DNA of 64,000 bases. It comes from Escherichia coli (GTDB taxonomy: Bacteria; Pseudomonadota; Gammaproteobacteria; Enterobacterales; Enterobacteriaceae). The translations under genes and the position numbers were made by a program. Positions 14,052 to 40,684 of the stretch are shown one piece after another; position 1 is the first letter of the stretch, and each line of letters begins with the position of its first letter. The notes below the pieces were generated by a model. It was not told where the DNA came from. It made no database searches and saw only the letters and a program-made list of their open reading frames with translations. The stretch lies in the NCBI RefSeq assembly GCF_044647545.1, contig NZ_CP172818.1; one strand, 5' to 3'.

Positions 14052-17000
14052 TTACACCTTTTCCACATTCACAAGGAAGGACTTAAACTCCGGCGTCTGC
14101 GTGTTCGCATCACCCACGAATGGCGTTAACGTATTGGCAATAAAGCCTTTTTTCGCAACGCCTTCATAGCCCCAGTGAATCGGAATACCGATGGTATCGA
14201 TATCTTTGCCGTTCGCTTTCAGCGTGCGAATACGTTTGGTCACCACCGCTTTGGCTTTGATATAGCCACGGTTGGAGGAGACTTTCACAGTATCGCCCTG
14301 GGCAATGCCAAGTTTATTCGCCAGCGACTCCCCGATTTCCACAAACTGCTCTGGTTGCAAAATCGCATTCAACAGCGCGTGTTTGGTCCAGTAGTGGAAG
14401 TGCTCGGTCAGACGATAGGTGGTTCCGACATACGGGAACTTATCGGCTTTACCCAATGCTTCGGCGTCGTCTTTAAAGATACGCGCAGCCGGGTTCGAGA
14501 TAACGTTTGGATGCAGCGGGTTAGTTCCCAGCGGCGTTTCAAACGGCTCGTAGTGTTCCGGGAACGGACCTTCCGCCATCTTATCGAGGGCAAACAGACG
14601 TCCCATGCCTTCCTGCTGCATGATAAACGGCCCTACGCCGCTGCCCGGAGGCGCTGCGCTGTAGTCCGGAATATCCCAGCCGGTCCACTTAGTGCCGTCC
14701 CATTTCAGCAACTGACGCTTCGGATCCCATGGGTTACCCTGCGGATCTGCGGAGGCGCGGTTATACAGAATGCGGCGGTTAAGCGGCCATGCCCATGCCC
14801 AGCCCAGCGTGTTACCGAGGCCAGACGGATCGGCGTTATCACGACGCGCCATCTGGTTACCTTCTGGCGTCCAGCTACCGGCGAAAATCCAGCAGCCACA
14901 GGAGGTCGTACCGTCATCGCGCAGTTGGGCGAACGAGCTAAGTTGTTGGCCTTTCTTGACGATAACCGCACCGGTTGCCGGATCGGTAATATCGGCCAGC
15001 GCCTTACCGTTGCTCTCCATCGCCACTTCTTCCGACTTCGGCTCATGCGGAATGGCGTAGTTCCAGGTCATATTCAGCACCTGGTCCGGGTTTGCGCCAC
15101 CCTGTTCGGCATACATCTTGCGCAAGCGCAGGAAGATACCGGAGAGGATCTCGCCATCAGTCAGCGCAATCCCTGGGGCGTCCGCACCTTTCCAGTGCCA
15201 CTGTAACCAGCGACCGGAGTTAACGATTGAACCGTTCTCTTCTGCGAAGCAAGTCGATGGCAGACGGAACACTTCGGTCTGGATCTTCGACGAGTCAACT
15301 TCGTTCAGCTCACCGTGGTTCTGCCAGAAGTTAGAGGTTTCAGTGTTCAGCGGGTCGATGGTGACGAGGAACTTCAGTTTCGACAGACAGCCGATCACTT
15401 TGTTTTTGTTCGGGAATGAGGCAACAGGGTTAAAGCCCTGGCAGATATAGCCATTGACCTTGCCCTCTTTCATCATCTCGAAGTATTGCAGGACGTCGTA
15501 GCCTTTATCCCACTTCGGCAACCAGTCAAAGCCCCAGTTATTTTCCGCCGTCGCTTTATCACCAAAGAAGGCCTTCATCATGGAGACGAAGAATTTCGGG
15601 TAATTGCCCCAGTAGTTAACCTGGCCTTCCAGCAGTGGTTTCGGCGTGTTGGCGGTAAGGTAAGTTTGCAGATCGGTCTGCTTCTCGCTTGGCAACGTCA
15701 TGTAACCTGGCAGACTCTGCGACAGCAGCCCCAGGTCGGTCAGCCCCTGAATATTGGAGTGACCGCGCAGGGCGTTAACGCCGCCGCCAGCCATCCCCAT
15801 ATTGCCGAGCAGCAGCTGGATCATCGCCATCGTACGAATGTTTTGCGCACCAATGGAGTGTTGCGTCCAGCCGAGGGCGTAGAGGAACGACGCTGTTTTA
15901 TCGTGAGCACTGGTTTCGGCGATGTATTCGCAGACTTTCAGGAACGCGTCTTTTGGCGTACCGCAGATGTTTTCAACCACATCTGGCGTATAACGGGAAA
16001 CGTGCTGTTTCAGCAAGTTCCACACGCAACGTGGATGTTGCAGCGTGGTATCGCGTTTGGCGAAGCCGTTTTCGTCCAGTTCGTAAGTCCAGGAGGATTT
16101 ATCGTACTTGCGTTTTTCCGCGTCGTAGCCGGTGAACAGGCCATCTTCAAAGCCGTAATCCTCACGCACGATCAGGCTGGCGTTGGTATAGGCTTCGGTG
16201 TATTCGCGGTTGAATTTTTCATTGTTCAGCAGGTACAGCAATACGCCTGACAGGAAAGCAATGTCAGTCCCGGAACGAATAGGGGCATAGTAGTCAGCCA
16301 CCGCCGCCGTACGTGTAAAGCGAGGATCGATCACAATCAGCTTCGCGCCGTTGTGAATTTTGGCTTCCATCGCCCAGCGGAACCCGACCGGGTGAGCTTC
16401 AGCGGCGTTACCGCCCATCACCACGACGAGGTTGGCATTCTTGATGTCGACCCAGTGGTTGGTCATCGCACCGCGACCAAATGTTGGAGCAAGACTTGCT
16501 ACCGTTGGTCCGTGTCAGACACGCGCCTGGTTGTCGACCGCGAGCATACCCAGCGCGCGGGAGAATTTTTGCGTTAAATAGCCGGTTTCGTTACTCGACG
16601 CGGAAGCACACAGCATCCCGGTGGAGAGCCAGCGGTTAACAGTCACGCCTTCGGCGTTTTGCGCAATGTAGTTCGCATCGCGGTCTTCTTTCATCAGTTT
16701 GGCGATGCGATCAAACGCCTCTTCCCAACTGATTTGTTGCCATTTATCAGAACCTGGCGCACGGTATTCCGGAAACTTCAGGCGGCTTTCGGAGTGGATG
16801 AAATCCACCAGGCCAGCGCCTTTCGGACAAAGTGCTCCGCGGTTGACCGGGTGATCCGGGTCACCTTCGATATGGAAGATAGATGCTTTGGCGTTTTTTG
16901 CTCCGTCACCGAGGCTGTACATCAACAGCCCACAGCCTACGGAACAATAGGTGCAGGTATTACGGGTTTCGCGGGTGCGCAGCAGTTTATACTGCCGGGT

Positions 17001-35614: not shown

Positions 35615-36988
35615 TTAACTCCGCTTATACAGCGGCAACCAAATCACCAGCCGTAAACCGCCCAGCGGGCTGTCTTCTGCTTTAACCCAGCCGCGATGCT
35701 GCTGAATGGCGGTTTCAACAATCGCCAGCCCCAAACCTGTACCGCCAGATTCACGATCGCGTGCTTCATCGGTACGATAGAACGGACGGAAAATCTGTTC
35801 GCGATCTTCCGGGCTAACGCCAGGACCATCGTCGTCCACCGTAATGGTGATACCGTCTTTATCTACCGCAAAGCCCACTTCAATCTTCGTATGGGAATAA
35901 CGCAGAGCATTACGAACAATGTTTTCCAGCGCACTTTCCAGGGCGTTCGGATTGCCGTACAGCGGCCACGGCCCAGGCGGGAAGTTAACTGTCAACGACT
36001 TGCCCATTTGCTCGGCTTCGAACGCCGCGTTATCCAGCACTTCACTCCACAACTGATTGGCTTTGATGGTCTCGCTAACCAGCGCGTTTTTTTGCTGATT
36101 ACGTGACATCACCAACAGGTCGTTAATCATGCTGTCCAGACGTTGCGCTTCGGTTTCAATACGCTCCAGTTCCTTGCTTTCACCGCTACGACGGCGCAGT
36201 AACGCCGTACCCAGTTGTAGACGCGTCAGCGGGGTGCGCAGCTCGTGAGAGATATCAGAAAGCAGACGCTGCTGAGAGGTCATCATGCGCTCCAGCGCGG
36301 TGACCATCTGGTTAAAACTGGCACCAGCGGCAAGGAATTCCTGTGGCCCCGCTTCAAGTTCCGGGTGCTGGCGTAAGTTTCCCTGGGCAACTTCATCGGC
36401 AGCGTTTTTCAGCTTACGCGCCGGTTTTGCCAGACTCCAGGCCAACCACAACAGAAGCGGCGTACTGACCAACATGGTGACAATCAGCAGTAATAGCGGG
36501 CGGTCAAACAGTAAGTTAATGAAATCGGATTGAGAACTGCTGGCCGGACGAATCAGATAAAGTTGGTAATTATCTTCGCCATCACGCACGGAGAACGGAC
36601 CGACCAGTTCCACGCGGCCATACTTTTTCTTCTGCGGATGATCGGCGTTATCGGCCTGACCAATAAAGTTACGAATGATCTGCATTTCGCTGCGTTCAGC
36701 GCCGATCACGCGGCCTTCGGTGGTCACCAATAACAAACGCTGTCCTGGCGGTGCCCACTTATCAATCGCCCGGAACAGACGCCGCCACCACATTAAATCA
36801 TTGGGCGGATCGTTCGCCAGCTCCGCTTCGACATGCTGCTCAATCATCAGACCCTGACGCTGTTCGCTATCCAGAAGCTCGGTCATCTGGCGTGAATCGA
36901 GCTTGGGTAACATCAAAACCAACATCAACACCAGCGCCAGCGTCAGCCAGAAGATGGCGAAGATGCGCGCGGTTAAGCTGCCTATCAT
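35615..36988 (-). CDS. cpxA: Envelope-stress sensor histidine kinase
   Basis: 457 aa ORF with HisKA H-box (SHELRTPLTRL) and ATPase domain. Confidence 0.9.
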   Translation of the reverse strand: MIGSLTARIFAIFWLTLALVLMLVLMLPKLDSRQMTELLDSEQRQGLMIEQHVEAELANDPPNDLMWWRRLFRAIDKWAPPGQRLLLVTTEGRVIGAERSEMQIIRNFIGQADNADHPQKKKYGRVELVGPFSVRDGEDNYQLYLIRPASSSQSDFINLLFDRPLLLLIVTMLVSTPLLLWLAWSLAKPARKLKNAADEVAQGNLRQHPELEAGPQEFLAAGASFNQMVTALERMMTSQQRLLSDISHELRTPLTRLQLGTALLRRRSGESKELERIETEAQRLDSMINDLLVMSRNQQKNALVSETIKANQLWSEVLDNAAFEAEQMGKSLTVNFPPGPWPLYGNPNALESALENIVRNALRYSHTKIEVGFAVDKDGITITVDDDGPGVSPEDREQIFRPFYRTDEARDRESGGTGLGLAIVETAIQQHRGWVKAEDSPLGGLRLVIWLPLYKRS

Positions 36989-37683
36989 GAAGCAGAAACC
37001 ATCAGATAGCCGCGACCACGCAAGGTTTTAAACCACGGGTGACCATCTTTACGATCCGGCAGTTTACGACGCAGGTTGGAAATGTGCATATCAATAGCGC
37101 GGTCGAAAGGCGTCAGGCGTTTGCCCAGCACTTCCTGGCTTAAATGCTCACGGGAAACCACCTGACCCAGATGCTGTGCCAGCAAATAGAGCAGGGTAAA
37201 CTCAGTGCCGGTTAACTCCAGCGTTTGCCCGTCGAAGCTGGCTTCCTGACGGCCTGGATTCAGCACTAAGGCATCAACTTCCAGTGTCGGTGAACCGTTG
37301 TCGTTGTTTTGCTGTTGCTCGCTCCAGTGCGAACGGCGCAGGATCGCGCGAATACGTGCCACCAGCTCACGATCATTAAACGGTTTCGGGAGATAGTCAT
37401 CTGCGCCCAGCTCAAGGCCGAGAACGCGATCAAGTTCACTGCCGCGCGCCGTCAACATAATGACAGGCGTCTGGTGTGTCTGGCGAAGTGCTTTTAATGT
37501 GTCGATACCATTTTTCTTCGGCATCATTACATCAAGCAAAAGTAAATCAATGCTGTCGTCCAGAAGATCAAGCGCCTGTTCCCCATCGTGGGCAACAATC
37601 ACGTTGAAGCCTTCCATCTCGAGCAGCTCCTTTAATAGGGAAGTCAGCTCTCGGTCATCATCAACTAACAGGATTTTATTCAT
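36985..37683 (-). CDS. cpxR: Envelope-stress response regulator (OmpR family)
   Basis: 232 aa ORF starting MNKILLVDDD; overlaps cpxA start. Confidence 0.9.
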   Translation of the reverse strand: MNKILLVDDDRELTSLLKELLEMEGFNVIVAHDGEQALDLLDDSIDLLLLDVMMPKKNGIDTLKALRQTHQTPVIMLTARGSELDRVLGLELGADDYLPKPFNDRELVARIRAILRRSHWSEQQQNNDNGSPTLEVDALVLNPGRQEASFDGQTLELTGTEFTLLYLLAQHLGQVVSREHLSQEVLGKRLTPFDRAIDMHISNLRRKLPDRKDGHPWFKTLRGRGYLMVSAS

Positions 37684-37738
37684 TGTTTAAATACCTCCGA
37701 GGCAGAAATTACGTCATCAGACGTCGCTAATCCATGAC

Positions 37739-37753
37739 TTTACGTTGTTTTAC
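37739..37753 (-). promoter_or_regulatory. CpxR box GTAAA-N5-GTAAA in the cpxRA/cpxP divergent region
   Basis: Minus-strand reading of 37739-37753 is GTAAAACAACGTAAA, an exact match to the published CpxR consensus. Confidence 0.55.
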
Positions 37754-37832
37754 ACCCCCTGACGCATGTTTGCAGCCTGAATCGTAAACTCTCTATCGTT
37801 GAATCGCGACAGAAAGATTTTGGGAGCAAATG

Positions 37833-38333
37833 ATGCGCATAGTTACCGCTGCCGTCATGGCCTCAACGCTGGCAGTCAGTTCATTAAGCCACGCTGCTGA
37901 AGTCGGTTCAGGCGATAACTGGCATCCGGGTGAAGAACTTACGCAGCGCAGTACGCAGAGCCATATGTTCGACGGCATAAGTTTAACCGAACATCAGCGT
38001 CAGCAGATGCGAGATCTTATGCAACAGGCCCGGCACGAACAGCCTCCTGTTAATGTTAGCGAACTGGAGACAATGCATCGCCTTGTCACCGCAGAAAATT
38101 TTGATGAAAACGCTGTGCGCGCACAGGCAGAAAAAATGGCGAATGAGCAAATTGCTCGTCAGGTTGAGATGGCAAAAGTCCGCAACCAAATGTATCGCCT
38201 GTTAACGCCGGAGCAGCAAGCGGTTTTAAACGAGAAACATCAACAACGAATGGAGCAGTTGCGCGACGTGACGCAATGGCAAAAAAGTTCATCGTTGAAG
38301 CTATTGAGTAGTAGCAACTCACGTTCCCAGTAG
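37833..38333 (+). CDS. cpxP: Periplasmic Cpx pathway inhibitor/adaptor
   Basis: 166 aa ORF with signal peptide and LTxxQ motifs. Confidence 0.9.
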
Positions 38334-38342
38334 TAAACCCTG

Positions 38343-38400
38343 TTTTCCTTGCCATAGACACCATCCCTGTCTTCCCCCACATGATGTGGGGGTTTTTTTT
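38343..38400 (+). ncRNA. cpxQ: Probable CpxQ sRNA (processed cpxP 3' UTR ending at the cpxP terminator)
   Basis: 3' UTR of cpxP ending in a strong terminator; assignment rests on published knowledge of CpxQ, boundaries approximate. Confidence 0.4.
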
Positions 38401-38401
38401 A
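38374..38401 (+). terminator. Rho-independent terminator of cpxP
   Basis: Hairpin CCCCCACATGATGTGGGGG followed by TTTTTTTT. Confidence 0.65.
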
Positions 38402-38481
38402 TCCTCAATTTGCCTGCTGCTTAATGTATTGCAGATGATTTGCTTCCGTTATACTACCGTCAGTTGATAGCGGGAGTATTT

Positions 38482-39384
38482 ATGAATCAATCTTATGGAC
38501 GGCTGGTCAGTCGGGCGGCGATTGCTGCGACGGCGATGGCTTCGCTGCTATTGCTGATTAAAATTTTTGCATGGTGGTATACCGGGTCGGTGAGTATTCT
38601 CGCCGCGCTGGTGGATTCGCTGGTGGATATCGGCGCGTCGTTGACGAATTTACTGGTGGTGCGATATTCCCTGCAACCTGCCGACGATAATCACTCGTTT
38701 GGTCACGGTAAAGCTGAGTCCCTCGCGGCGCTGGCGCAAAGTATGTTTATCTCCGGTTCGGCACTATTCCTGTTTTTGACGGGTATTCAACATCTGGTAT
38801 CTCCAACACCGATGACAGATCCAGGCGTCGGGGTTATCGTGACAATTGTGGCGCTAATTTGTACGATTATCCTTGTCTCGTTTCAGCGGTGGGTGGTGCG
38901 CCGGACGCAAAGCCAGGCGGTGCGGGCTGATATGCTACATTACCAGTCTGATGTTATGATGAACGGCGCAATTCTGCTGGCGCTGGGGTTGTCCTGGTAC
39001 GGCTGGCATCGCGCCGATGCTCTGTTTGCATTGGGAATCGGCATCTATATTTTATATAGCGCGTTACGCATGGGATATGAGGCGGTACAGTCATTACTGG
39101 ATCGCGCATTGCCTGATGAAGAACGGCAAGAAATTATTGATATCGTGACTTCCTGGCCGGGTGTTAGCGGCGCTCACGATCTTCGCACGCGGCAGTCAGG
39201 GCCGACCCGCTTTATTCAGATTCATTTGGAAATGGAAGACTCTCTGCCTTTGGTTCAGGCACATATGGTGGCGGATCAGGTAGAGCAGGCTATTTTACGG
39301 CGTTTTCCGGGATCGGATGTGATTATCCATCAGGACCCCTGTTCCGTCGTACCCAGGGAGGGTAAACGGTCTATGCTTTCATAA
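38482..39384 (+). CDS. fieF: Cation-diffusion-facilitator iron/zinc efflux protein
   Basis: ORF track 38440-39384; trimmed to [13 protein letters not shown] start giving 300 aa. Confidence 0.85.
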
Positions 39385-40583: not shown

Positions 40584-40684
40584 GCCTGATGCGCTTCGCT
40601 TATCAGGCCTACATGAATTCTGCAATTTATTGAATTTGCAAACTTTTGTAGGCCGGATAAGGCGTTCGCGCCGCATCCGGCATG
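40584..40684. repeat. REP element pair between pfkA and sbp
   Basis: GCCTGATGCGCTTCGCTTATCAGGCCTAC and GTAGGCCGGATAAGGCGTTCGCGCCGCATCCGGC units. Confidence 0.6.

Follow-up and report, generated by a model that had tools for sequence, protein, structure and literature searches.

The question raised by this locus is whether a perfect tandem of GTAAA repeats lying between the divergent cpxRA and cpxP genes of Escherichia coli is an operator through which the response regulator CpxR acts and, if so, which of the two promoters it serves. The window, i.e., the whole 64,000-nucleotide stretch of DNA analyzed, carries cpxR (36985-37683, minus strand), whose ORF, annotation, and Pfam Response_reg and Trans_reg_C domains mark its product as an OmpR/PhoB-type response regulator; cpxA (35615-36988, minus strand), coding for a sensor histidine kinase with Pfam HAMP, HisKA, HATPase_c, and CpxA_peri domains; and cpxP (37833-38333, plus strand), annotated in RefSeq and coding for a periplasmic protein with the Pfam LTXXQ domain. 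The cpxA gene is cotranscribed with cpxR, and CpxP is an inhibitor or adaptor of the LTXXQ family. The cpxP gene opens with ATGATG; its start is 37830 in the ORF list and 37833 in RefSeq. Downstream, fieF and pfkA follow in the annotated order. The 149 bp that separate cpxR from cpxP contain the tandem, termed box 1 here, whose cpxR-proximal edge is 56 nt from the cpxR ATG. The cognate regulator is thus encoded right beside it, by a CpxR-type ORF that directly adjoins the box and whose product matches the PDB CpxR entries 4UHJ (E 5e-75) and 4UHT (E 1e-62); the PDB search with this product returned isolated CpxR domains and no DNA-bound CpxR structure. E. coli FDAARGOS_497 matches the 1.6 kb surrounding box 1 at 100% identity, and 5425 of 5426 complete E. 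coli genomes contain this segment. The assignment of the box to the cpxRA/cpxP divergent region, made in an earlier note from the letters alone, is therefore borne out by both the ORFs and the annotation of a 100%-identical genome.

Our answer is that the motif is almost certainly a high-affinity operator for phosphorylated CpxR (CpxR~P) that the two divergent E. coli promoters, those of cpxP and cpxRA, have in common. Its sequence, its uniqueness, and its gene context are direct observations. Box 1 occupies positions 37739-37753, where the plus strand reads TTTACGTTGTTTTAC and the minus strand GTAAAACAACGTAAA; on the minus strand, it resolves into two GTAAA pentamers (37753-37749 and 37743-37739) flanking an ACAAC spacer. 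The pattern GTAAANNNNNGTAAA, i.e., GTAAA-N5-GTAAA, has this one exact match in the 64-kb window, and the earlier claim of an exact minus-strand tandem thus holds, strand included. When the chance level was set with dinucleotide-preserving shuffles of the window (n=100), the exact pattern was expected 0.05 times on average and occurred at least once in 5 of the 100 shuffles, so its significance over the whole window is borderline; within the 149-bp cpxR-cpxP gap, the chance of an exact match is ~1e-4 by our own arithmetic. With up to one mismatch allowed, there are four matches in the window (the perfect site included) versus 3.0 expected, a count close to chance, from which the perfect copy alone stands out. 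A weight matrix was also derived from 39 further published CpxR sites, the two at cpxR/cpxP being excluded; under this leave-out matrix, box 1 ranks first among 127,972 positions with 19.5 bits, the runner-up scoring 14.3.

The same 15-mer is already on record. Table S1 of PMC9600279 catalogs 41 known CpxR sites, among them cpxR/cpxP1 (GTAAAACAACGTAAA) and cpxR/cpxP2 (GCAAACATGCGTCAG), both of which the table entries credit to De Wulf et al. 2002. The E. coli K-12 cpxR/cpxP1 site shares its 15-mer, strand, and gene context with box 1 and differs in nothing. Box 1 is therefore the known cpxR/cpxP1 site itself and not a relative of it, and the proposal in the earlier note that it is a CpxR recognition site at known autoregulated divergent promoters is supported by this catalog entry. 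For CpxR binding, ChIP occupancy, and induction, we draw on the literature. In Yersinia pseudotuberculosis, a DNase I footprint on the cpxR-cpxP fragment protects GTCAGGGCATGTAAAGCTGA, and scrambling of the GTAAA-N5-GTAAA sequence about 55 nt upstream of cpxR weakens binding of CpxR~P (PMC3158067). The Yersinia site resembles box 1 in its pattern, its distance from cpxR (56 nt here), and its location in a divergent cpxR/cpxP gap, but differs in the bases of the spacer and the linker. The protected sequence aligns with the E. coli minus strand at 37763-37744; hence, the published footprint covers the junction of box 1 with a second box described below (GTCAG from that box, plus box 1's distal GTAAA) and not all of box 1. 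The earlier note had asked for a comparison with published CpxR footprints; made here through secondary and orthologous sources, it finds the distal GTAAA covered in Yersinia, and none of these sources excludes the site. Binding of CpxR at these exact E. coli bases is thus reported, by way of secondary citations and the Yersinia ortholog.

In vivo, the direct CpxR targets identified by ChIP-exo include cpxP, cpxR, and cpxA, and the latter two genes belong to the CpxR iModulon (PMC7657598). Activation of the Cpx response induces cpxP, the most strongly Cpx-induced gene, 19- to 60-fold; with pnlpE in a cpxR mutant, its expression drops to 0.03 (PMC9600279 Table 1). The action of CpxR is reported not to depend on which way its site is oriented (PMC5063474).

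The published cpxR/cpxP2 sequence GCAAACATGCGTCAG is located at 37759-37773, likewise on the minus strand, and constitutes box 2, a degenerate site in which GCAAA and GTCAG flank a CATGC spacer. Taken by itself, it is weak, with 8.7 bits and rank 46 under the leave-out weight matrix. It lies on the same strand as box 1, 20 bp away and in the same 10-bp register, such that the minus-strand half-sites GCAAA, GTCAG, GTAAA, and GTAAA start at 37773, 37763, 37753, and 37743, in exact 10-bp steps. The earlier note was right about box 1 itself but omitted this array of four half-sites, as well as the unequal distances that separate it from the two promoters.

For a view of how the arrangement has been maintained in evolution, loci were sampled from species-representative genomes using a degenerate pattern for the first 14 cpxR codons alone, which gave at least 120 loci. 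The box itself played no part in this search, and the sample is confined to genomes whose CpxR N-terminus matches that of E. coli. Counted among the loci listed were the 118 with at least 85 nt of upstream sequence (117 other species and the window). In 115 of these 118 listed loci, an exact box on the cpxR strand starts 67-70 nt upstream of the cpxR ATG. A CpxP homolog is detectable upstream of cpxR in 99 of the loci listed; all 99 are divergent and all have the box. The three listed loci of the 118 that are devoid of the box, from an Aeromonas sp., Thorsellia anophelis, and a Sodalis endosymbiont, are also without cpxP. Beyond these positions, just one other exact box was found on either strand in the 1.07 Mb of flanking sequence fetched for the loci listed.

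Conservation at the level of individual bases, and the rigid spacing that accompanies it, can be read directly from an alignment of 101 unique Enterobacterales intergenic sequences drawn from the loci listed. Across these 101 sequences, the box 1 half-sites are 100% invariant versus 85% identity in the spacer and a mean of 75% for the intergenic region as a whole, an invariance against background that points to purifying selection on the half-sites in the listed loci. The box 2 half-sites are 98.7% conserved in the same set, with the CTGACG that they include invariant, and the 10-bp register of the half-sites is kept in 99 of the 101 listed sequences. A TAnAnT motif lies exactly 46 nt from the start of box 1 in 97 of the 101 sequences from the loci listed, whereas the distance from the edge of box 1 to the cpxR ATG varies between 55 and 58 nt among these loci. 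Within E. coli, 5423 of 5425 genomes have the 45-mer comprising boxes 1 and 2 at an identity of at least 99%, with no difference over the aligned bases. Two of the 5425 E. coli matches to this operator 45-mer are on records typed as plasmids, which may be mistyped replicons or assembly artifacts.

Some of the sampled loci merit individual mention. The Sodalis endosymbiont of Henestaris halophilus has kept the first 14 cpxR codons, but the gene is otherwise riddled with stops and is a pseudogene, and both the box and cpxP are gone; the whole Cpx module looks to have decayed in this reduced genome. In Aeromonas sp. RU39B and Thorsellia anophelis, an intact CpxR-like regulator with an E. coli-type N-terminus is present, with no cpxP homolog within 1.2 kb upstream and no GTAAA-N5-GTAAA within 200 nt upstream, and autoregulation in these two may be different or absent. 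A further locus on NZ_SZPQ01000034.1, titled Martelella alba BGMRC 2031, an alphaproteobacterial name, has an Enterobacterales-type divergent cpxR-cpxP arrangement, with the box variant GTAAAGCTACGTAAA that is the same as that in Sodalis-like and Acerihabitans loci; this assembly may be mislabeled or misclassified.

The promoters served by the array can be placed only approximately, since both transcription starts are taken from 60-mer strings in two engineering papers and not from mapping data; accordingly, all positions given relative to them are provisional. The PcpxP 60-mer (PMC9753035 Table S10) corresponds to 37738-37797, and its PcpxP(+5) version adds GTTGA, which would put the cpxP start at the G at 37798 on the plus strand. 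On this provisional start, box 1 spans about -59 to -45, with its center near -52, and box 2 spans about -39 to -25, the position usually taken by a -35 element. The predicted -10 hexamer of cpxP is TAAACT (37785-37790, plus strand), of which T, A, and the final T are invariant and which agrees with the PcpxP(+5) string; with the start at 37798, there is no properly spaced -35 hexamer at cpxP. On the other side, a cpxR promoter 60-mer from a strain-engineering paper (PMC7041290 Table 3), the one paper turned up by a full-text search for the 15-mer, ends at 37700, suggesting a cpxRA start near 37699 on the minus strand. The candidate elements for this promoter are a -35-like TGGATT (37729-37734, minus strand), 4 bp downstream of box 1, and a -10 candidate TAATTT (37706-37711, minus strand), 17 bp from it. 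Among the loci listed, five of the six positions of TGGATT are 85-99% conserved and the fifth position is 70% conserved, and the ATTT of the -10 candidate is 99-100% conserved. With a start at ~37699, box 1 would span -54 to -40, centered near -47. It therefore falls within about 100 bp of both start sites as given by these secondary sources. A scan of 37600-38500 for the sigma-70 consensus detected no promoter, which fits activator-dependent promoters and gives no help in locating them.

Another cpxP promoter, with TTGCAG (37770-37775) and TATCGT (37794-37799) separated by an 18-nt spacer and a start at ~37806, was considered and dropped, the A of TATCGT being kept in only 8% of the sequences aligned from the loci listed, whereas TAAACT shows the TAnnnT invariance of a -10 element. 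PMC9753035, citing Yamamoto & Ishihama 2006, describes PcpxP as dependent on sigma-70 and as carrying three CpxR-P sites, one of which, the third, reaches +5. A plus-strand GTAAA at 37784-37788 overlaps the cpxP -10 and falls inside this reported third site (37784-37802 region). Its third A is kept in just 14% of the sequences from the loci listed, while T, A, and the final T of TAAACT are invariant; such a pattern is more in keeping with a -10 element than with a CpxR half-site, and this GTAAA was rejected as a conserved third half-site. The conservation of box 2 could, in part, likewise stem from promoter function and not from CpxR binding.

On the reading that we favor, a shared CpxR~P operator, these elements would work together as follows. 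CpxR, the winged-helix regulator encoded beside the site, would be phosphorylated by CpxA or acetyl phosphate, and a head-to-tail dimer of CpxR~P would occupy the two GTAAA direct repeats of box 1, as suggested by the OmpR/PhoB family. Box 2, weaker but in phase, would take a second CpxR~P dimer, located on the helix face that the first one occupies. Over about -59 to -25 of cpxP, the array would stand in for the -35 element, with CpxR recruiting sigma-70 RNA polymerase. The transcription of cpxP depends on K291 and K298 of the RNA polymerase alpha-CTD (PMC3995681), and such dependence would fit the dimer on the upstream side. On the cpxRA side, 4 bp separate the end of box 1 from what would be a weak -35 element, an arrangement that would give positive autoregulation. 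In terms of network logic, more CpxR and CpxA would mean amplification, and CpxP would provide negative feedback. Inference enters this scheme in the exact positions of the starts, in the stoichiometry of the dimers, and in the contacts with polymerase.

A stronger version of this scheme can be envisaged, in which the functional unit is not the 15-mer alone but the rigid, essentially invariant array of four half-sites, fixed 46 nt from the cpxP -10. We regard this as improbable. If the array were indeed the unit, two CpxR dimers would have to form an obligate complex, one that is read out asymmetrically, in a class II-like manner at cpxP and abutting the -35 element at cpxRA. Such a two-dimer asymmetric architecture may never have been explicitly stated or tested.

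Of the explanations that depart from a shared operator, the one that survives best accepts box 1 as a true CpxR site but makes it essentially a cpxP element, with the autoregulation of cpxRA being minor or achieved through other elements. The induction of cpxP far above that of other regulon members agrees with this, as does the fact that, among the loci listed, it is the spacing of the array to the cpxP -10 that is rigid, while the distance to the cpxR ATG drifts between 55 and 58 nt. Yet, this explanation sits poorly with the conserved -35-like hexamer only 4 bp from box 1 on the cpxR side. Autoactivation or amplification is announced in the titles of De Wulf 1999 and Raivio 1999, which also speaks against it. 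Moreover, cpxR and cpxA are themselves direct ChIP-exo targets and members of the CpxR iModulon (PMC7657598), and the authors of the Yersinia study place the box upstream of cpxR (PMC3158067). We accordingly consider a function confined to cpxP unlikely.

Less likely by a good margin is a main role of the conserved A/T-rich element as an UP-element-like alpha-CTD contact, or as a site for some other OmpR-family regulator, in place of a CpxR-specific operator. Box 1 does lie at about -59 to -45 of cpxP, the usual position of an UP element, and the requirement of cpxP for the alpha-CTD lysines (PMC3995681) could be taken in the same sense. Against this, the bases that are invariant among the loci listed are exactly the two GTAAA pentamers, while the A/T-rich spacer varies, and it is a matrix of other CpxR sites that puts box 1 at rank 1. 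CpxR binding is, furthermore, reported both in vitro and in vivo, and expression collapses in a cpxR mutant (PMC9600279); taken together, these make a CpxR-independent role very improbable. Finally, a functionless chance match to a short consensus, for which one could cite the 5 of 100 window shuffles with at least one exact match and the chance-level rate of one-mismatch matches, is refuted for all practical purposes by the conservation data, as the box falls in the sole gap, 149 bp long, in which one would look for a CpxR site, is kept at a fixed position in 115 of the 118 loci listed against one other exact box in 1.07 Mb, and belongs to a 45-mer that is at least 99% identical in 5423 of 5425 E. 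coli genomes.

The shared CpxR~P operator can be placed among related systems. CpxR and PhoB have a common Response_reg and Trans_reg_C architecture, and the array is akin to the pho boxes of PhoB and to OmpR/PhoB operators in general in consisting of ~10-bp direct repeats, recognized by a winged-helix response regulator, and would, on the provisional cpxP start, likewise occupy the -35 region. The half-site, GTAAA, differs from that of the pho boxes, and here two divergent promoters share one array, each in the opposite orientation. Other perfect boxes in E. coli, namely those of ppiA, psd, motA, ompC, tsr, yccA, yqaE, and alx, have the same GTAAA-N5-GTAAA core (PMC9600279) but are found at other promoters, at some of which CpxR acts as a repressor; among the perfect E. 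coli boxes, only box 1 adjoins cpxR and is paired with an in-phase second listed box. What the present analysis adds to the known site is the explicit register of four half-sites, its rigidity, its near-invariance in Enterobacterales, and its absence in the three sampled loci without cpxP, an increment that may already have been implicit in earlier work. Its value is mainly that of a positive control, in that a cataloged site was picked out from sequence alone with correct coordinates and strand; the conservation data furnish a clean phylogenetic footprint and no new biology. The operator is nevertheless of consequence as the element that controls the gain of the Cpx response to envelope stress, through both an amplification arm (cpxRA) and a feedback arm (cpxP and the CpxQ sRNA from the 3' end of cpxP). 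For inner-membrane stress, PcpxP is also the standard promoter in reporters and biosensors.

A few minor features of the window remain to be recorded. The cpxP 3' UTR (38334-38400) closes with a T-run preceded by a strong, GC-rich hairpin, with the terminator stem at 38374-38392 (plus strand). This is the region of the cpxP transcript from which CpxQ is reported to be cut, going by the account of that sRNA in PMC4817254; the Rfam scan of the window gave no intergenic cpxR-cpxP match and no CpxQ family at the gathering threshold. The one-mismatch matches to the CpxR consensus are at 29664-29678 (minus strand), 39294-39308 (minus strand), and 49770-49784 (plus strand). One of these three falls within the fieF 3' end, upstream of pfkA, and those at 29664 and 39294 score 12.6-13.7 bits under the leave-out matrix; all three were rejected as further CpxR sites, the four matches found against 3.0 expected being what chance would give. 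Elsewhere in the window, Rfam identifies four naRNA4 (REP-type) elements, at 26358-26606 (plus strand) and 35524-35601 (minus strand), one of which lies between yiiM and cpxA. At the Rfam gathering threshold, there are also a SECIS_3 selenocysteine insertion element (16462-16520, minus strand), the ES036 sRNA downstream of pfkA (40605-40646, minus strand), a ClpQY (hslVU) promoter element (54298-54355, minus strand), and an L31 ribosomal-protein leader (58967-59019, plus strand).
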